A program made the translations under genes and the position numbers. A DNA stretch of 58,679 nucleotides from Thermoplasmata archaeon. GTDB taxonomy: Archaea > Thermoplasmatota > Thermoplasmata > Lutacidiplasmatales > UBA184. Below are positions 18,065 to 25,167 of the stretch, piece by piece (the first letter of the stretch is position 1; the number at the start of each line of letters is the position of its first letter). The notes under the pieces were generated by a model that was given only the letters and a program-made list of their open reading frames with translations, made no database searches and was not told the DNA's origin. The DNA lies in the NCBI GenBank assembly GCA_030037395.1, contig JASHRJ010000099.1, positions 1 through 58,679 on the forward strand. Reading direction: 5' to 3'.

Positions 18065-19591
18065 TCAGGCGGCCGCGCGACCTCGCGCCGGCCGCCGGAG
18101 CGAAACGACGGACTCGCGGAGCTCGAACGACCTCCGCTGGCCGCTGCGACGGGTGCGGGCCACCTCGACCCCGACGATCTCGAAGCCGAGGTCCGCGCCG
18201 AGTCGGGCGAGGATGAGGTCGCCGGGTACGTACGTGCCGGCGAGGAGGGAGTCGCCCACGACCAGGACGAACCGTCCGCCCGGCCGGAGCGCCCGCAGCA
18301 CACCGGCCAGGACCGTCCGCAGGTCCGCGAAGTACCGGTGTACGATCGCGTGCATGTCGTCCCGTCGGTACGTCGCCTTCCGCGCCACGTTCTCGCGTAC
18401 CCTCGCGAGGATCTCCGGCAGCCACGGGTCCGGGGCGGAGCCGACCTCGGCGTACGCCCGGGTCTCGGCTCGGGGAAGGTTGTCGCAGGCGACCTCGAGG
18501 CTGCGGAGGCGGCGCAGATCCGCGTAGCTGCGGGCCATCGCGAGCCAGGCCAGGTCGAGCTTGTAGTTCATCACGTAGTCCAGGCCGTTGACGTACGGCG
18601 GGCTCGTGATCGCAACGTCGACCGAGCCCGGCCGCACCGACAGGCGACGCGCGTCCGCGCGCTCCACCTCGGCGGTCGGCCCCCACCGCTCCGCTTCGGA
18701 GCGTAGCGCCTCGAGGTCCCCGGCCATCGTCGCAACGGCCTCCGCGAACCGGTCGCGCGGACTCCGCCCCTCCCCCGGGCCGGTGCGGCGGTAGCCGAGG
18801 CACGGCGAGCGGTGGAGGCGGCTCGACGGGATCAGGATCCGGCCGAAGGCGAGGCGGAGCGCCTCCGAGACCCCGGTCCTCCCTACCGGGAGGGCCGCCC
18901 GGAGCCGCAGGAGCTCGTCGAGCGCCGCGGGAGCGAACTGGCGTCGGGTCTCCCGGAGGAACGGCAGCGGGGCTCGCGGGCCGTGCCGCGAGGCTCGCAG
19001 CGTCGCCTCCGCCCGCTCGCGGAGCCCCCGGGGATCGAGCTCGAACCTCGTCTTGACGCGGGCCGCGAGCACCGCCGGCTCGAGCAGCTCGACGCCCAGC
19101 GCGTGGGCGCCGGCGCGTCGCGCTTCCACGAGGGTCGTGCCGCTGCCGGCGAAAGGATCGAGCACGGTCGTGCCCGGTCCGGCGTCCGCGTCGCCGAGCG
19201 CACCGCGGACGAACTCCGCAGAGAAACCCTGAACGTACGGCCACCACCGATGGACCGGGACCGTCTCGTTCGATCGGAACGTGATCGGTCCCTGGTACCG
19301 GCCGATCGCCACCCCGTTCTCGTGCTCGAAACGCTCCGTGTACGTGGCGGGCTCGACGAAGTCCTCCCGGTCGAGGAGAGTTCCGTACGCGCGGAGGATC
19401 CAGAGGCCCCGGCCCAGCCGCTGGACGGCGCCGGCGCGTTCCCACCGCTCCAGCGCGGCCTGCACCTCGTCCTCCGAGGCGCTCAGGACCGAAGCGAGCT
19501 GGCGGTGCGTGGCCCCGATCGGCCCGGTCGCATCCAAGGCGCGACGCAGCGCGAGCGTGTCGACCGGTCCCGGCAGTGCCCCCGCGGTCAT
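18065..19591 (-). CDS. SAM-dependent DNA methyltransferase, SPPY motif IV (N4-cytosine or N6-adenine type), N-terminal winged-helix; no adjacent restriction enzyme
   Basis: 508 aa from the ATG at 19591. Motif I LDPFAGSGTTLVEA is followed about 170 aa later by motif IV ITSPPYVNGLDY and by LRPGGRFVLVVGDS. The ATG overlaps the stop of the CHAD gene (ATGA). Confidence 0.8.
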   Translation of the reverse strand: MTAGALPGPVDTLALRRALDATGPIGATHRQLASVLSASEDEVQAALERWERAGAVQRLGRGLWILRAYGTLLDREDFVEPATYTERFEHENGVAIGRYQGPITFRSNETVPVHRWWPYVQGFSAEFVRGALGDADAGPGTTVLDPFAGSGTTLVEARRAGAHALGVELLEPAVLAARVKTRFELDPRGLRERAEATLRASRHGPRAPLPFLRETRRQFAPAALDELLRLRAALPVGRTGVSEALRLAFGRILIPSSRLHRSPCLGYRRTGPGEGRSPRDRFAEAVATMAGDLEALRSEAERWGPTAEVERADARRLSVRPGSVDVAITSPPYVNGLDYVMNYKLDLAWLAMARSYADLRRLRSLEVACDNLPRAETRAYAEVGSAPDPWLPEILARVRENVARKATYRRDDMHAIVHRYFADLRTVLAGVLRALRPGGRFVLVVGDSLLAGTYVPGDLILARLGADLGFEIVGVEVARTRRSGQRRSFELRESVVSLRRPARGRAAA

Positions 19592-20481
19592 GCAGCCCCC
19601 CGGGCCGTCGCCGCGGCCCGCTCGCCGCGGGCGGCGATCCGCTCGAGGGTGAGACGGACCGCGCGGCGGAGCTCCCGACGGACCTCCTTCAAGCGCAACG
19701 CCGGGACCGAACCGGCGAGGCCCTCCGGTATCGTCGCAACGGCCACGTCTAGGTCGTGGAGCCGGCCGAGCCGGTCCTGGAGGCGACGCCAGGAGAGGGG
19801 CGGGGGGTGGTTCGCGGTCGCCCGGGCGAGCCCCTCGAGGCTGGCGAGGTGACGCCACTGGCGGATTCGTATCCTCAGCCGGTGCAGCCGCTCGCCGGTA
19901 GGATCCCGGCGCGCCTTCCGCTGGGCCCTCCGTACCCGGGCCTGCCGACGCCGTCGTTCCTCGGCGAGAATGTGATGCAGGCCGCGGCCGGCGTCGCGGC
20001 GCGGGGCCGTCGCGAGCAGGCCCCGGGCCCGTTCGAACAGGCCCCCCTGACGTTCGGTCCGCAGGAACGCCCGGAGCAGCTCCCGACCGGTGTGGGAGTC
20101 TTCGCGGAGCTGACCGAGGAACTCGCGCCAGGCCTCGGGGGGAGGGCGCACACGGCCACCCCGAGAGATCGGCGCGAGGAGGGAGGCGGTGACGTCGCGG
20201 TCGCGGACCCGGCCGACCAGGCGCGCAAGCCGCCGGAGCCGGCCCGCCACCTCCCGCGCCTCGGGGTGCGTGTCGGCCGGCAGCAGTCGACCCCAGACCG
20301 TGAGGCCGCTCGCGAGCCGTCGGAGGTCGCGGTGCAGGTCGTGGACCTCCCCGGGGGTGAGCGGGACATGCTCGAGGGCGCGCTCGATCTGCCGATCGAG
20401 CGCCCCGAGGACTCGGACGAGCTCGCCGCGCAGCCGGCCAGGACCGGACGAGGGGGGCGCCGTCCGGGGTCGTTGCGGCAC
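19588..20481 (-). CDS. CHAD domain protein (polyphosphate-granule associated family)
   Basis: 297 aa with a GTG start. It has repeated helical, His/Arg-rich CHAD-like motifs: VHDLHRDLRRLASGL, VRDRDV, LHRLRIRIRQWRHL and LHDLDV. Confidence 0.8.
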   Translation of the reverse strand: MPQRPRTAPPSSGPGRLRGELVRVLGALDRQIERALEHVPLTPGEVHDLHRDLRRLASGLTVWGRLLPADTHPEAREVAGRLRRLARLVGRVRDRDVTASLLAPISRGGRVRPPPEAWREFLGQLREDSHTGRELLRAFLRTERQGGLFERARGLLATAPRRDAGRGLHHILAEERRRRQARVRRAQRKARRDPTGERLHRLRIRIRQWRHLASLEGLARATANHPPPLSWRRLQDRLGRLHDLDVAVATIPEGLAGSVPALRLKEVRRELRRAVRLTLERIAARGERAAATARGAA

Positions 20482-20503
20482 CGGACCTCCGACCGCGCCG
20501 CGC

Positions 20504-20510
20504 TAGTTAT
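20504..20510 (-). promoter_or_regulatory. TATA-like box upstream of the CHAD-methylase(-HAD) unit
   Basis: The minus strand reads ATAACTA. Its centre is about 26 nt upstream of the GTG at 20481. Confidence 0.35.
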
Positions 20511-20543
20511 GGCTTCGGTGAGCGGCGACGGCCTCCCGCGGCC

Positions 20544-20554
20544 ATAGACCTTTA
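20544..20554 (+). promoter_or_regulatory. TATA-like box upstream of the ppx operon
   Basis: ATAGACCTTTA, centred about 28 nt upstream of the ppx ATG at 20578. Confidence 0.35.
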
Positions 20555-20577
20555 CCCCGGCCGGACTCTGGGCGCGC

Positions 20578-22134
20578 ATGCGGGGCCCGCGAGCGAGCCC
20601 GGCGCTGGCCGCGGCGGACCGCGTGACGGTCCGTTCGCCGCTCGGCGTCCTCGACGTCGGCTCGAACACCGCGCGCTGCGTCATCTTCGAGGCGCATCCG
20701 GCGGGGGCGATCCGGCCGATCTTCGAGACGAAGGAGGCCCCCCGCCTAGGGCTGGGCACGGGGTCGGACGGCTCGCTTTCGGAAGCGGCGATCGCCCGCG
20801 GCGTACACGCCGTACGCCGGTTCGCCCGGACGCTCGAGCGGCTCGACGTCTCGCGGAAGCTCGGGGTCGCCACCAGCGCGGCGCGCGACGCCCCCAACGG
20901 TCCGGCGTTCGTGCAGGAGGTGGAGCGGGCAACCTCGGTCCGGCTCCGGATCCTGACCGGCGCCGAGGAGGCCCGGTACGCCTACCTCGGAGTCGCCGGC
21001 ACGCTGGAGCTCCAGGACGACCTCGTCTGCGACCTCGGCGGAGGCTCGCTGCAGCTCGCGGAGGTGCGCGGCGGGGTGCTCGCGAACTCCGTCAGCCTGC
21101 CCCTCGGCTCCCTTCGACTGTCCCGTCGGTTCCTCGAGCACGACCCCCCGAAGCGCCGGGAACGCGACGAGCTGCGAGAGCATGCCCGCAGGGCCATTCG
21201 TTCGACGATGGAGGCGTTCGGCGGCCATCCCCGGCGGCTGATCGCGGTCGGGGGAACCGTCCGGTCGCTGGCGCGGGCCTCGATTGAGCTCACGGAGTTC
21301 CCGGTCCGGCGGGTGCACGGCTACCGGCTCTACGCCCGAGCGCTCGAGGCGATGGACGAGCTGCTCGGAGAGATGCCGGCGAGCCGCCGCAAGTCGGTCC
21401 CCGGGATCGGCTCCGACCGGGCGGACGTTGTCCTCGCCGGGATCACCGTCTTCGAGGAGATCGAGCGGGCCCTCGCCGTGGACCACCTCGTGGTCTCCGG
21501 CGCCGGGATCCGCGAGGGGATCGCCTACGAGGCGATCCGGGCCAAGCTTCCGGCGCCGGCGCAGGAGCTGGTCGATCGCTCGGTGGAAGCGGCGAGCGCA
21601 TCGTTCGCGTTCGACGCCGAGCGCGGGCGCGAGGTGGCGGAGGTCGCCGACCGGCTGTTCGCCCTCCTCGCCCCGCGGTACGGGTGGACCCGCAGCGAGG
21701 GGCTGGCGCTGCGCGCGGCCGCCCGGATGCACGACGCCGGGATCGCCGTCGACCTGTGGAACCACCCGCAGCATTCGTCGTACCTCATCCGCAACTATCC
21801 GATCGGGGGCCTCGACCCGCGCGAGGTCCTCCTCGCGTCGATGGCCGCCTTCCTGCACGACGGGGACGATCCCCCCTCCGCCTGGAAGAAGCGGTTCCAG
21901 CCGCTCGTCGGCGGCTCCGAGGTCACGACCGCGGTGCGGCTGGGGGCGATCCTCGAGGTCGCGAAGACCGTCGCCGGGCCCCGCACGGTCCTCTCGCTCG
22001 TCAACGGGGGGGCGGCGCTGGCGGTGGGCTTTTCTTCGGGCTCCGACTCCTCGCTCTCGTCCCGCTGGCAGGAGAAGGTGCGCAAGGCGATGGGAAGGGT
22101 CTTCGACCTCGAGCTCCGGGTGCGCGATGGGTGA
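20578..22134 (+). CDS. ppx: Exopolyphosphatase, Ppx/GppA family, with C-terminal HD-like domain
   Basis: 518 aa. Contains the ASKHA-fold phosphate-1 motif LDVGSNTARCVIFE, then DLGGGS, and AARMHDAG in the C-terminal domain. Confidence 0.9.
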   Translation: MRGPRASPALAAADRVTVRSPLGVLDVGSNTARCVIFEAHPAGAIRPIFETKEAPRLGLGTGSDGSLSEAAIARGVHAVRRFARTLERLDVSRKLGVATSAARDAPNGPAFVQEVERATSVRLRILTGAEEARYAYLGVAGTLELQDDLVCDLGGGSLQLAEVRGGVLANSVSLPLGSLRLSRRFLEHDPPKRRERDELREHARRAIRSTMEAFGGHPRRLIAVGGTVRSLARASIELTEFPVRRVHGYRLYARALEAMDELLGEMPASRRKSVPGIGSDRADVVLAGITVFEEIERALAVDHLVVSGAGIREGIAYEAIRAKLPAPAQELVDRSVEAASASFAFDAERGREVAEVADRLFALLAPRYGWTRSEGLALRAAARMHDAGIAVDLWNHPQHSSYLIRNYPIGGLDPREVLLASMAAFLHDGDDPPSAWKKRFQPLVGGSEVTTAVRLGAILEVAKTVAGPRTVLSLVNGGAALAVGFSSGSDSSLSSRWQEKVRKAMGRVFDLELRVRDG

Positions 22135-22825
22135 GGCCCCGAGCCCGGCGCACGGCTTTCCCGGGCGCCTGTTCGTCTTCGAGGGGCTGGACGGCAGCGG
22201 CAAGTCGACGCAGGCGGCCCTGCTCGGCAAGTGGCTCGCGGCCCAGGGGTACCGGGTCTTCTCGACGGAGTGGAACTCCTCGGAGCTCGTTTCGAGCGTG
22301 ATCAAGCGCGGCAAGAAGAAGGGGCTCCTGACCCCCACCACGTTCAGCCTCCTCCACGCCACCGACTTCGCCGACCGCTTCGAACGCCGGATCCTCCCGC
22401 CGCTCCGGGCGGGGTACCTGGTCGTCTGCGACCGCTACGCGCACACCGCGTTCGTCCGCGACGCGGCGCGGGGATGCGACCCGGCGTGGGTGCGGACGAT
22501 CTACTCGTTCGCGCCGCGCCCGGACCTTGCCTTCTACTTCCGGGTCCCCGTGGCGACGACCCTCAAGCGCAAGCTCGCCTCCCGGCAGAAGATCAGCTAC
22601 TACGAGGCGGGCATGGACCTCGGCCTGTCGGACGATGTCGCCGAGAGCTACGAGCGGTTCCAGTCCCGGCTCCGGCGGGAGTACGAGCGGATCGCGGAGG
22701 CGGACCGGTTCACCGTGATCGATTCGTCGCGGCCGGTCGAGGAGATCCAGCGCGCCCTCCGCGACCACGTGCGGCCGGTGCTCGAGAACTTCCCGACGGG
22801 GGCGGCGCTCACGCATGACGGCTAG
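22127..22825 (+). CDS. Thymidylate-kinase-fold protein 1 (canonical P-loop); candidate catalytic subunit of a Tmk-like polyphosphate kinase
   Basis: 232 aa from the ATG at 22127, overlapping ppx by 8 nt. Contains the P-loop FEGLDGSGKST and the DRY motif VVCDRYAHT. An atypical segment, ISYYEAGMDLGLSDD, is shared with the next gene. Confidence 0.85.
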   Translation: MGEAPSPAHGFPGRLFVFEGLDGSGKSTQAALLGKWLAAQGYRVFSTEWNSSELVSSVIKRGKKKGLLTPTTFSLLHATDFADRFERRILPPLRAGYLVVCDRYAHTAFVRDAARGCDPAWVRTIYSFAPRPDLAFYFRVPVATTLKRKLASRQKISYYEAGMDLGLSDDVAESYERFQSRLRREYERIAEADRFTVIDSSRPVEEIQRALRDHVRPVLENFPTGAALTHDG

Positions 22826-23564
22826 AACGTACGGGACGCGCCCCCCCGGCATGCCGGCCGGGAGCCTGCCCGGACGGCTGATCGTGATCGAAGGGGCGGA
22901 CGGCTCGGGTCGGACGACCGAGGTCGCCCAGCTCAAGGAGCGGCTCGAGATCGAAGGGCACGCGGTCGTCGATACGGGCCTCCGCCGCTCGGATCTGGTG
23001 AGCGCCGAGATCGACCGCGCCAAGCAGGGCCACACGCTCGGCGCTTCGACGATGGCCTTGCTGTACGCCGTTGACTTCGCGGACCAGCTCGAGAACAAGA
23101 TGGTGCCGGCGCTCGCCGCCGGCGCGACCGTCCTTGCCGACCGGTACATCTACACGCTGATGGCACGGGCGGTCGTGCGCGGCGCTTCTCGGGCATGGGC
23201 CCAGGAGCTGTACGCGTTCGCCCTCCGCCCGGATCGGGTGCTGTTCCTCGAGGCGCGCCCGGAGATCCTGTTGCACCGGGCGATCGCGAAGTACGGCAGC
23301 CTCGACTACTGGGAGAGCGGCATGGACCTCTGTCTCTCGCGGGACCTCTTCGAGAGCTTCTTCCTCTACCAAGAGCACCTCTCGCGGGAGTTCGAGTGGA
23401 TGCGCAGCGCCTACGGCTTCGAGGTCGTCGACGCGAACCGCGCCCCCGAGCAGGTCCACGAGGACGTGGTCCGCCGGGTCGCGCCGCTGTACGGCGGGCC
23501 CCTCGGGACCCCGGCGCCGCGTCGGCCGACTAGGCGTCCCGCTTCGCCAGCTGTTTCCGAGTGA
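22815..23564 (+). CDS. Thymidylate-kinase-fold protein 2 (Walker A Lys replaced by Arg); candidate non-catalytic partner subunit
   Basis: 249 aa, overlapping the previous gene by 11 nt. The P-loop reads IEGADGSGRTT (R in place of K). DRY is kept (VLADRYIYT), and the shared segment is SLDYWESGMDLCLSRD. It aligns without gaps to the upstream paralog by eye. An alternative start is the ATG at 22851. Confidence 0.8.
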   Translation: MTARTYGTRPPGMPAGSLPGRLIVIEGADGSGRTTEVAQLKERLEIEGHAVVDTGLRRSDLVSAEIDRAKQGHTLGASTMALLYAVDFADQLENKMVPALAAGATVLADRYIYTLMARAVVRGASRAWAQELYAFALRPDRVLFLEARPEILLHRAIAKYGSLDYWESGMDLCLSRDLFESFFLYQEHLSREFEWMRSAYGFEVVDANRAPEQVHEDVVRRVAPLYGGPLGTPAPRRPTRRPASPAVSE

Positions 23565-24066
23565 ACAGCCAGACGAGCCGTCCGGCCCCGGGCTTGACGC
23601 CGCCCGGAAAGTCGAGGCAAGCCGCCCCCCCACGGGTCAGGCGGACCACCGAGATCCCGTCCCCGACGAGCGCCATGCCGACGAACTCCGCGAGCGTCGG
23701 CTCGTGGCCCACCAGGACGACCTCCTGCCCCGGGCGCGTCGAACGCCGCAGCCGAGCGAAGATCGGGTCCGGCAGGTTCCCCGGTGCCAGCTCCGGCCAG
23801 ACCTCGAGCGTCGGGGCCGAGGGGAGCTCCCCGGCCACGATCTCGGCGGTCTTGGCGGCTCGGTCCGCTGTGCTCGTCACCAGCCGATCCGCCGGGGAGA
23901 CGATGCGCGCGAGGCCCCGCGCCGCCCGCCGCGTCTGGCTCCGACCCTTCGAGGTAAGCGGCCGGCGGTCGTCGTTAGGCCACCGGGCGGGGTCTCGCGG
24001 CTCCGCGGGCCCATGCCGCACGACCACGATCCGAACGTTCCGGGGGGAGCGGCTTGGGCGGTGCAC
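23530..24066 (-). CDS. sixA: Histidine phosphatase superfamily, SixA-like phosphohistidine phosphatase
   Basis: 178 aa with a GTG start. Contains the catalytic RHG motif IVVVRHGPAE, then PLTSKGRSQ and LVGHEPTL. The 3' end overlaps the tail of the convergent Tmk-like gene by 35 nt. Confidence 0.75.
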   Translation of the reverse strand: MHRPSRSPRNVRIVVVRHGPAEPRDPARWPNDDRRPLTSKGRSQTRRAARGLARIVSPADRLVTSTADRAAKTAEIVAGELPSAPTLEVWPELAPGNLPDPIFARLRRSTRPGQEVVLVGHEPTLAEFVGMALVGDGISVVRLTRGGAACLDFPGGVKPGAGRLVWLFTRKQLAKRDA

Positions 24067-24141: not shown

Positions 24142-25167
24142 TTACTCCTCGAGTCGCGACGGCCGTTCGGGGCCCGGGCTCGCGCGGGGGCCCGCGGGGA
24201 GGCCGCCGGCGCCGTGCGCCCGGACGGTGGCACGGTCGAAGTACGCCTGGGCGATGTCCTGGCTGTAGGCGATCGTCCGGGAGATCGCCTCCACGGCCCG
24301 CGCGACCGCCGCCGCCGACGCGGGGGACATCGCCCTCCCCTCGACGGCCGGCAGCAGCCGTTCGGCCAGCGTGCGCCCGCCCGCGGCAAGCGCCTCGCCG
24401 ACGTCCAGGAGATCGTTCGCCCGGTCCGCGTCCGACCCGCGGAGCACCGCCTCCAGATGGTCCATCGCCTGGCGGTGGAACTGGCGGAGCTCCCGCAGCA
24501 GGCCCCCGTCGGCCCCCAGGTCTGCGAGACGAGGCCCGACCTCCCCGAGGGTGACGGCATGGTCCGCGATCCGCTCGAGGCTCCGCGCGACCGTCCAGAG
24601 CGCGGCGGTCTCGCCCCGGGTCCGCGCGGGGGTCCGGTCGAGCCGGGAGACCTCTCGCTCGACCGCCCACGCCTCGCGATCGACCTCGTCGTCGCGGCGC
24701 TCCCAGAACCGCTCGTCCCCGAACGGCAGCAAGGTCCAGCTCTCGGCGGCCTCGCGATGAAAGGAGAGGACCTTTTCGCCGAGCTGACCCAGCCTCACGT
24801 CGAGGGGTGCGGCCCCTTGAGGGTCGAGATCGACGAGCTCCAGGGCGTCCGGCTCCGCCCGGACGAGCTGGGGGCCCGAGGTCCGGCGGCAGAACTCTCG
24901 GACGATCTCCCGGGTCGTGGGAGAAAGACCGCGGCGCTCCCGGACCTCGAAGTCCGTGGCCCCGCCGAGGTAGGCGGAAAGGAGGGACCGGAACAGATGC
25001 TCCGGGGGTGCTCCCGGCGCGACCGTGACGACGGAGCGCGCGAACGGTCGGGAGACGGCGGGCGGGATGCCTAGGCTCCGGCGGTCGGCGGGGGTCGGCG
25101 GCTGCCGGCCCGCGGAGCGGCCCGGCGCCGCGAGGGCCGGCGCTCGGCCCAGCGTGCGGTTCGACAT
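24142..25167 (-). CDS. phoU: PhoU-family phosphate-regulon regulator (archaeal long form)
   Basis: 341 aa with two PhoU-like helical repeats carrying conserved motifs: WTVARSLERIADHAVTL and AISRTIAYSQDIAQ. Confidence 0.8.
   Translation of the reverse strand: MSNRTLGRAPALAAPGRSAGRQPPTPADRRSLGIPPAVSRPFARSVVTVAPGAPPEHLFRSLLSAYLGGATDFEVRERRGLSPTTREIVREFCRRTSGPQLVRAEPDALELVDLDPQGAAPLDVRLGQLGEKVLSFHREAAESWTLLPFGDERFWERRDDEVDREAWAVEREVSRLDRTPARTRGETAALWTVARSLERIADHAVTLGEVGPRLADLGADGGLLRELRQFHRQAMDHLEAVLRGSDADRANDLLDVGEALAAGGRTLAERLLPAVEGRAMSPASAAAVARAVEAISRTIAYSQDIAQAYFDRATVRAHGAGGLPAGPRASPGPERPSRLEE

Follow-up and report, generated by a model that had tools for sequence, protein, structure and literature searches.

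Two Tmk-fold genes behind ppx in a Thermoplasmata archaeon as probable catalytic and regulatory subunits of a PPK3-type polyphosphate kinase

We analysed a stretch of 58,679 nucleotides from a Thermoplasmata archaeon (contig JASHRJ010000099.1; the whole stretch of 58.7 kb, with a GC content of 74%, is called the window below). In it, two adjacent genes of the thymidylate kinase (Tmk) fold, here named tmkA and tmkB, lie directly behind the exopolyphosphatase gene ppx. We conclude that tmkA and tmkB very probably encode the catalytic (c) and the regulatory (r) subunits of a PPK3-type polyphosphate (polyP) kinase in this high-GC soil archaeon. The homology, the assignment of the subunits, the residue patterns, the fold and the conserved synteny are established here. 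By analogy with the characterised enzyme from Sulfolobus acidocaldarius, the two proteins would form a heteromer having polyP kinase activity but no deoxythymidine monophosphate (dTMP) kinase activity, with a preference for polyP-dependent ATP formation. The three genes are arranged as follows.

20578–22134, forward strand: ppx, exopolyphosphatase of 518 aa with a Ppx-GppA domain plus domain III; first gene of the overlapping ppx–c–r unit
22127–22825, forward strand: tmkA, cPPK3-type catalytic subunit of 232 aa (assigned from sequence and fold)
22815–23564, forward strand: tmkB, rPPK3-type non-catalytic partner of 249 aa (likewise assigned)

The ppx and tmkA genes overlap by 8 nt (ppx stop codon at 22132–22134, tmkA ATG at 22127; junction ATGGGTGA), and tmkA and tmkB by 11 nt (tmkA TAG at 22823–22825, tmkB ATG at 22815; junction ATGACGGCTAG). 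An earlier note on this DNA, made from the letters alone, had reported two Tmk-fold genes with these overlaps, and its coordinates were exact. Because of the overlaps, we infer that ppx, tmkA and tmkB are translated as one unit. The 11-nt junction is found again, in the form CATGA[CT]GGnTAG, in five species-representative genomes of Thermoplasmata.

The PPK3 family was first described in a bioRxiv preprint in August 2024 (10.1101/2024.08.28.610084) and then in a journal paper in February 2026 (Hofmann et al., J Biol Chem 2026, PMC12995831). The S. acidocaldarius enzyme, SaPPK3, consists of Saci_2019 (cPPK3) and Saci_2020 (rPPK3), whose genes follow ppx (saci_2018) in an operon that also contains SixA and CHAD (saci_2021) genes (PMC12995831). 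Saci_2019 is catalytic and forms polyP from ATP even without its partner. Saci_2020 is inactive, producing by itself only traces of ADP and no polyP, yet it activates Saci_2019 about tenfold and leads to tetramer formation, the complex being an a2b2 tetramer (PMC12995831). Both proteins lack the dTMP kinase activity that is present in Saci_0893 (PMC12995831). SaPPK3 strongly prefers the reaction from polyP and ADP to ATP, synthesises polyP only at a high ATP/ADP ratio with an ATP-recycling system, and has ADP and more than 2 mM ATP as inhibitors (PMC12995831). The same authors ascribed the inactivity of rPPK3 to replacement of the arginine of the DRX motif, described a conserved, positively charged, polyP-binding cleft in cPPK3, and named the PDB entry 5h70 (STK_15430 of Sulfurisphaera tokodaii) as a cPPK3 homologue (PMC12995831). 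They found PPK3 associated with PPX, SixA, CHAD and Pst, in genomes that carry multiple dTMP kinase paralogues and mostly neither PPK1 nor PPK2 (PMC12995831). The earlier note had pointed to a PPK3 beside ppx in S. acidocaldarius, and this system is real; its picture of one catalytic and one degenerate partner fits the published biochemistry of the Sulfolobus enzyme.

TmkA and TmkB align with 84 identities over 212 residues (40%), no gaps and an E-value of 1e-52 (BLASTP), so their similarity is far beyond chance, and the gapless alignment made earlier by eye holds. Both match the Pfam model PF02223, Thymidylate_kin (1.3e-26 for TmkA and 1.1e-17 for TmkB), and neither matches the PPK2 model PF03976 at E ≤ 0.01. 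When all PDB sequences were searched with phmmer, the best match of TmkA was ST1543/STK_15430 of S. tokodaii (2plr/5h70; E 8.5e-58), followed by the Thermus thermophilus Tmk at 2e-19; for TmkB, the values were 4.4e-30 for ST1543 and 3.8e-12 for the best canonical Tmk. The AlphaFold2 models had mean confidence scores (pLDDT) of 89.4 for TmkA and 91.0 for TmkB, in which a C-terminal tail of ∼25 residues is poorly modelled. For both proteins, the top Foldseek ranks were taken by the ST1543 entries (2plr, 4nzy, 4rzx and 5h70), with canonical Tmk six to nine orders of magnitude behind. The top matches of the TmkA model were 2plr (E 5.6e-21) and chain B of 5h70 (7.0e-21; template modelling (TM) scores 0.84/0.94, root-mean-square deviation 1.5), with the best canonical Tmk at 1.5e-12, and the TmkB model matched 2plr at 1.0e-18 and canonical Tmk at about 1e-12. 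The Tmk-fold structures matched had target-normalised TM scores of 0.85–0.94. The Pfam and Foldseek checks that the earlier note had proposed gave the Tmk fold for both proteins, Foldseek with ST1543 in first place.

Next, we placed the pair in a neighbour-joining tree of 30 c subunits, 30 r subunits and four canonical Tmks with 100 bootstraps. As no canonical tmk, sought as outgroup or third paralogue, was found in the fetched loci, the outgroup sequences were taken from E. coli and from PDB alignments. The PPK3 proteins separated from canonical Tmk in all of the bootstraps (100/100), so that the pair falls outside this set of canonical enzymes; the c clade was supported at 97% and the r clade at 87%. 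TmkA and TmkB each lay within a Thermoplasmata subclade, with support of 100% and 95%, respectively. Profile hidden Markov models (HMMs) of the two clades, built without sequences from the window, Thermoplasmata or Sulfolobales, scored TmkA at 338 bits (c) and 246 bits (r), and TmkB at 197 bits (c) and 310 bits (r). In the controls, Saci_2019 scored 283 (c) and 209 (r), Saci_2020 scored 92 (c) and 143 (r), and canonical Tmks 38–65 bits. The distances between pairs of c subunits and those between the corresponding pairs of r subunits were correlated with r = 0.83, the permutation maximum being 0.10, and therefore the c and r genes appear to be inherited together. We also considered whether TmkB arose from TmkA by an independent, lineage-specific duplication. 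We reject this, since TmkB clusters with r subunits from other phyla (bootstrap of 87% and a margin of 113 bits between the HMMs) and the c and r trees are congruent.

On sequence grounds TmkA is a cPPK3 orthologue that keeps every hallmark of the catalytic subunit. It matches the cPPK3 alignment, of which it is itself a part, at all 46 invariant columns, and its signatures are the Walker A motif GSGKST (K26), DRY (R103), TEWNSS, GKKKGLLTP and YYEAGMD. For residue counts we used 83 c subunits and 80 r subunits, the latter sampled from the r-type genes of loci L006–L085 together with L004:6621-7253 and L005:6626-7243. The Walker A lysine is present in 83/83 c subunits, and so is the DRX arginine. 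The TmkA positions K35, R61, K63, K64, K65, R84, R111, R115, R123, R139, R148, R153 and R212 carry a basic residue in 85% or more of the c subunits, and for eight of them (K35, R61, K65, R84, R123, R139, R153 and R212) this conservation is confined to c subunits. As far as sequence conservation can tell, these c-specific positions agree with the published polyP-binding cleft, the cleft itself being taken from PMC12995831.

Raw identity leaves TmkB unassigned (29–33% with the r subunits of Sulfolobales, 32% with Saci_2019), and therefore its assignment rests on profiles, tree and motifs. From its clade HMM scores, its position in the tree and the gene order, TmkB is best described as an rPPK3-type partner. 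Its Walker A motif is GSGRTT, in which R33 replaces the lysine, while DRY is retained (R110). It has no TEWNSS motif, the lid arginine and most of the c-specific basic residues are also gone, and seven of the eight c-specific basic positions are occupied by E, G, Q, Q, E, Y and V. The replacement of the Walker A lysine by arginine was found in 79/80 r subunits, Saci_2020 alone keeping the lysine; GSGRTT is thus borne out as the mark of the degenerate partner, as the earlier note had proposed. The DRX arginine is kept in 77/80, and is replaced in both Sulfolobales r subunits (DGY) and in one other (DCY). The S. tokodaii r subunit shows both changes, lysine to arginine in Walker A and loss of the DRX arginine. 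Because 77/80 r subunits keep the arginine and 79/80 have the lysine-to-arginine change, we read the loss of the DRX arginine as a trait of Sulfolobales r subunits that does not define the family. By the same counts, TmkB, with DRY kept and the near-universal Walker A change, conforms to the usual r-subunit pattern of the family as a whole.

The dTMP site provides a further distinction from canonical Tmk. We take the residues of this site in E. coli Tmk (4TMK structure) to be R39, the arginine of TREPGG, with E40, P41, G42 and G43, and F74, R78, T105, Y108 and Q109. At R39–G43, TmkA has E/W/N/S/S (TEWNSS) and TmkB has G/L/R/R/S (TGLRRS); at F74, R78, T105, Y108 and Q109, TmkA has H, F, A, a gap and R, and TmkB has Y, F, L, a gap and R. 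Every position of the conserved pocket (TREPGG, the stacking Phe, Arg and Tyr/Gln) is thus replaced in both proteins. All motifs quoted in the earlier note were found in the translations (GSGKST/GSGRTT, VVCDRYAHT/VLADRYIYT and ISYYEAGMDLGLSDD/SLDYWESGMDLCLSRD). The shared segment that it had singled out as unlike canonical dTMP kinases is a PPK3-family signature that follows the lid, YYEAGMDLxLS / DYWESGMDLxLS; its counterpart in the T. thermophilus Tmk is shorter and dissimilar.

A genome scan with the cPPK3 alignment gave a relative in at least 577 GTDB species genomes; counts of loci given here refer to the best 80 of these. The 80 loci include Thermoplasmata (seven loci with 71–81% identity, one of them labelled 'bacterium'), many Nitrososphaerota, and also Acidobacteriota, Planctomycetota, Chloroflexota, Nitrospirota, Verrucomicrobiota, Methanoliparum and others. 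A second Tmk-fold gene adjoins the cPPK3 gene in 77 of the 80 loci, and follows it in all except L043. In most of the 80 loci, this second gene scores higher to TmkB than to TmkA, and ppx and SixA-like genes are nearby. Across all of the at least 577 species genomes, the relatives come from Nitrosopumilales/Nitrosotalea, Methanoliparum and more than 10 bacterial phyla, among other groups. The published distribution was given as Sulfolobaceae, Nitrososphaeraceae and 'a few bacteria', or as a 'narrow distribution' (PMC12995831; bioRxiv 10.1101/2024.08.28.610084). Our sequence counts suggest that PPK3 is spread much more widely.

Some loci depart from the common arrangement. In an Acidobacteriota locus (L043:8001-9517), the order is reversed, the r-type gene preceding the c-type gene. 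One metagenome-assembled genome (MAG) of Thermoproteota (GS_HAYS_MAG_00077) has two ppx-linked cPPK3 genes (L053:3563-4240 and L065:4258-4938), and no r-type gene was found near either in the fetched locus, tblastn included; these could be c-only systems, the r gene could lie elsewhere, or the bin could be mixed. Proteins in which PPK3-like Tmk domains are fused to other domains were found with the window region 22815–23561 (representatives P0362, P0372, P0389, P0405, P0427, P0441, P0475, P0483 and P0494). The types are c–r fusions of 460 aa, two Tmk domains with Ppx-GppA domain III/HD (∼690 aa), an MFS transporter with a Tmk-like domain and DUF2252/APH, SPX with a Tmk-like domain and APH/DUF2252, and inorganic pyrophosphatase (InPase) with a Tmk-like domain. 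These natural fusions support a phosphate/polyP role for the family, and the SPX fusion hints at eukaryotic members. The c–r fusions, together with the distance correlation of 0.83, are indirect support for the predicted c/r heteromer.

We compared the pair with known systems. In S. acidocaldarius, as in the window, adjacent Tmk-fold paralogues overlap an upstream ppx in the order ppx, c, r, with SixA and CHAD in the locus; the S. acidocaldarius and S. tokodaii loci both read SixA–ppx–c–r–CHAD, with ppx/c and c/r overlapping. TmkA is 47% identical to Saci_2019 and has TEWNSS, KKKxLLTP, HATDFADR, DRYxxTA and EAGxD in common with it. TmkB and Saci_2020 are alike in scoring higher on the r-clade than on the c-clade HMM. 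Their identity, however, is ∼29%, and TmkB has DRY and the lysine-to-arginine change, whereas Saci_2020 has lysine (SSGKTT) and DGY. The systems also differ in host (Thermoplasmata here, Thermoproteota for SaPPK3), in the strand of SixA and CHAD (opposite here, in the same operon in S. acidocaldarius), in the additional PhoU-domain gene here, and in Ppx, which has 518 aa with domain III here and 411 aa in S. acidocaldarius. ST1543, the top sequence and structure match of both proteins, comes from a thermoacidophile, was deposited as a thymidylate kinase, was solved without an r subunit and is 45% identical to TmkA; the r subunit encoded next to it has a GSGR P-loop, as TmkB does. Canonical Tmk (PF02223 and TIGR00041; E. 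coli 4tmk and T. thermophilus 5x7j) has the same fold, P-loop, DRX motif and lid architecture (Foldseek target TM ∼0.85–0.89). The window pair differs from it in the replaced dTMP residues, in YYEAGMDLxLS after the lid and in its paired, ppx-linked genes, with identities of 24–37%. In the two-domain class II PPK2 (P. aeruginosa PA3455), an inactive P-loop kinase module likewise supports an active one in phosphotransfer between polyP and nucleotides, a parallel that was also drawn by the authors of the SaPPK3 work (PMC12995831). That enzyme, however, belongs to the family PF03976, has fused domains rather than subunits, and was published solely as a polyP-dependent AMP/GMP kinase.

These comparisons allow a working model. 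TmkA is a P-loop kinase of the Tmk fold, with a conserved basic surface that would take the place of the dTMP pocket. With ATP or ADP bound at the P-loop and polyP lying along this surface, it would transfer the terminal phosphate in either direction, from ATP to the chain end of polyP or from there to ADP. By analogy with Saci_2020, TmkB would form the core of the heteromer, oligomerise with TmkA and activate it. The gene overlaps may couple the translation of the polyP-making or -using enzyme to that of the polyP-degrading Ppx, and the CHAD, SixA-like and PhoU-domain genes would complete a phosphate/polyP island.

Several points weigh against the PPK3 assignment or limit its reach. The function is transferred from an orthologue that is ∼47% identical for the c and ∼29% for the r subunit. 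On the NCBIfam dTMP kinase equivalog model TIGR00041, TmkA scores 96.0 bits, above the cutoff of 83.25 (TmkB, at 73.3 bits, is below it), so sequence models alone cannot exclude a dTMP kinase; this model fails to separate cPPK3 from true Tmk, because proteins of the Saci_2019 type are also named dTMP kinase. TmkB lacks the published feature of rPPK3 inactivity, the replaced DRX arginine, in that it keeps DRY, and with arginine for lysine in the P-loop it might retain some activity or nucleotide binding. The tree was made by neighbour joining, with an outgroup of just four bacterial canonical Tmks. The scan for PPK1, PPK2 and a separate tmk covers 58.7 kb of the genome, and in vivo the reaction may run towards polyP synthesis or polyP use.

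In the best-surviving alternative, the pair is of the PPK3 type but serves mainly as a polyP-consuming energy buffer, net synthesis of polyP being carried out by another enzyme such as a PPK1 or PPK2 encoded elsewhere. We regard this as possible, if rather doubtful. It draws on the strong preference of SaPPK3 for ATP formation and its need for a high ATP/ADP ratio with ATP recycling to make polyP (PMC12995831), and on the extent of the window, which is 58.7 kb of a genome. On the other side, most PPK3 genomes encode neither PPK1 nor PPK2, and Saci_2019 alone forms polyP from ATP (PMC12995831). Pfam scans of ∼40 further open reading frames (ORFs) across the window, chosen heuristically in this 74% GC sequence, revealed no PPK1, no PPK2 and no third Tmk domain, in keeping with what the earlier note had said of PPK1 and PPK2. 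The note had further proposed that the pair, if homologous to the Sulfolobus enzyme, is the polyP synthase of this lineage. Its homology to SaPPK3, subunit by subunit, stands, being borne out by the PDB search, Foldseek, the bootstrapped tree, the clade HMMs, the diagnostic residues and synteny; the role of synthase goes beyond the evidence, as SaPPK3 favours polyP-dependent ATP formation.

A second alternative concerns TmkB, which may not be inert: it could bind an adenine nucleotide as an allosteric sensor of energy charge, or provide a weak second active site, so that the complex would have two functional nucleotide sites. The near-universal change of lysine to arginine is conservative and differs from loss of the P-loop, the DRX arginine is kept in 77/80 r subunits, G-x-x-G-x-G-R-[ST], R118, R122 and R155 are strongly conserved, and both ADP and ATP (the latter above 2 mM) inhibit SaPPK3 (PMC12995831). 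Because the pocket is conserved, the nucleotide site of the r subunit appears to be under selection, which would allow a sensor role. But Saci_2020 without its partner formed no polyP and no more than traces of ADP (PMC12995831), and TmkB has lost the lid arginine together with most of the basic residues found in the cleft of the c subunit. We consider a functional nucleotide site in TmkB unlikely on balance. With more doubt than confidence, the picture may be extended to the whole family: the r subunit would be a conserved pseudokinase with the Walker A lysine-to-arginine change, DRY and a selected pocket, binding ATP/ADP and gating the c subunit by energy charge. In this extended picture, loss of the DRX arginine would be peculiar to Sulfolobales, and PPK3 would reach far past its published range, into at least 577 species genomes from many bacterial phyla, from Nitrososphaerota, from Thermoplasmata and from Methanoliparum, with fused forms that carry eukaryote-typical domains.

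That the pair consists of normal thymidylate kinases, a housekeeping enzyme and a redundant paralogue, placed beside ppx by chance, is highly improbable: the matches of both proteins to PF02223, the TIGR00041 score of TmkA and the label 'dTMP kinase' on orthologues in public records are outweighed by the replacement of all dTMP-contacting positions in both, the clade apart from canonical Tmk with 100% bootstrap, the Sulfolobus orthologues without dTMP kinase activity, unlike Saci_0893 (PMC12995831), and the ppx/SixA association in most of the 80 best loci from many phyla.

The PPK3 reading of tmkA and tmkB concerns a kind of system that is already known, the family, its PPX/SixA/CHAD neighbourhood and its mostly bacterial spread having been published in 2024–2026. 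The window adds a candidate polyP kinase in Thermoplasmata. The main texts of the preprint and the paper do not mention Thermoplasmata (the supplementary tables lay outside the search), and no paper combining PPK3 with Thermoplasmat* was found in the literature searched. The analysis also corrects a systematic misannotation in public records, where both subunits are called 'dTMP kinase' or 'thymidylate kinase'. Because TIGR00041 gives TmkA 96 bits against a cutoff of 83.25, annotation pipelines will go on mislabelling cPPK3. A cleaner diagnostic for the r subunit is the P-loop G-x-G-R-[ST], with no TEWNSS and loss of the c-specific basic residues. The lysine-to-arginine hallmark, the spread over at least 577 species and the fusions (Ppx domain III, pyrophosphatase, SPX and MFS) extend beyond this locus. 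For soil archaea, the locus offers a candidate polyP/energy-buffer system made of ppx, cPPK3, rPPK3, CHAD, SixA and PhoU.

The genes flanking the ppx–c–r unit are the following.

19588–20481, reverse strand: CHAD-domain protein of 297 aa, divergent from ppx (Pfam PF05235, 4.8e-24)
20482–20577, no strand: divergent intergenic region between the CHAD gene and ppx, 96 bp, read from the sequence
23530–24066, reverse strand: SixA-like histidine phosphatase of 178 aa, convergent with tmkB (Pfam PF00300, His_Phos_1, 2.7e-11)
24142–25167, reverse strand: PhoU-domain protein of 341 aa, putative phosphate-signalling regulator (Pfam PF01895, 4.7e-08)

Together with ppx, tmkA and tmkB, these genes form a polyP/phosphate-homeostasis island; Pfam and NCBIfam agree on the ppx/CHAD/SixA/PhoU neighbourhood that had been noticed earlier. 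The ppx product matches PF02541 (6.1e-53) and PF21447 (1.6e-10), and reaches 270 bits on the NCBIfam exopolyphosphatase model TIGR03706, below the cutoff of 307. A (p)ppGpp role through Ppx/GppA is disfavoured, since the protein scores much better on the exopolyphosphatase than on the GppA model. The SixA-like protein scores 70.7 bits on TIGR00249 (sixA), just short of the cutoff of 74.5. Its gene overlaps the 3′ end of tmkB by 35 nt (23530–23564), and the same overlap is found in the Thermoplasmata loci L006–L010. The PhoU-domain protein obtains 27.9 bits on phoU_full, far short of the cutoff; its weak PhoU matches are confined to residues 156–307, preceded by an unassigned N-terminal region of ∼150 aa.

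The position of the CHAD gene is kept in the Thermoplasmata species-representative loci L006–L010 and in three near-identical MAG contigs (L001–L003), and the gene is downstream in L011. The PhoU-domain gene lies beside SixA in the representative loci L006, L007, L008 and L010, and in L002 and L003. The three NCBI MAG contigs carry the same gene block with a TmkA that is 100% identical (related assemblies GCA_030045875.1, GCA_030051125.1 and GCA_030048845.1). In two of them (L002:3462-4160 and L003:2802-3500), the gene caller placed a 232-aa ORF without a Pfam match opposite the CHAD gene, and both the third contig and the present scan call CHAD at window 19588–20481 on the reverse strand; the 232-aa ORF is a shadow-ORF miscall, typical at 74% GC.

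The spacer between the CHAD gene and ppx contains the only AT-rich patches of the area, ctagttatgg at about 20503–20512 and catagaccttta at 20543–20554. As each is ∼26–29 nt from a start codon, both may be TATA-like elements of the archaeal kind from which leaderless transcripts would start.

The archaeal origin of the window is visible in its other genes; Pfam scans identified RpoL, TFS, an ArcS-like DUF5591+PUA protein and TrmB. The nearest homologues are MAG proteins named 'Thermoplasmata archaeon', in line with the non-crenarchaeal lineage that had been suggested from the sequence. At the edge of the window, two long ORFs overlap on opposite strands (3–809, reverse, and 147–1892, forward). 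The former has a P-loop kinase match (AAA_28, 1.1e-10) and a weakly cytidylate-kinase-like N-terminus, and the latter matches Pterin_bind (dihydropteroate synthase) only within its C-terminal half, residues 306–545.

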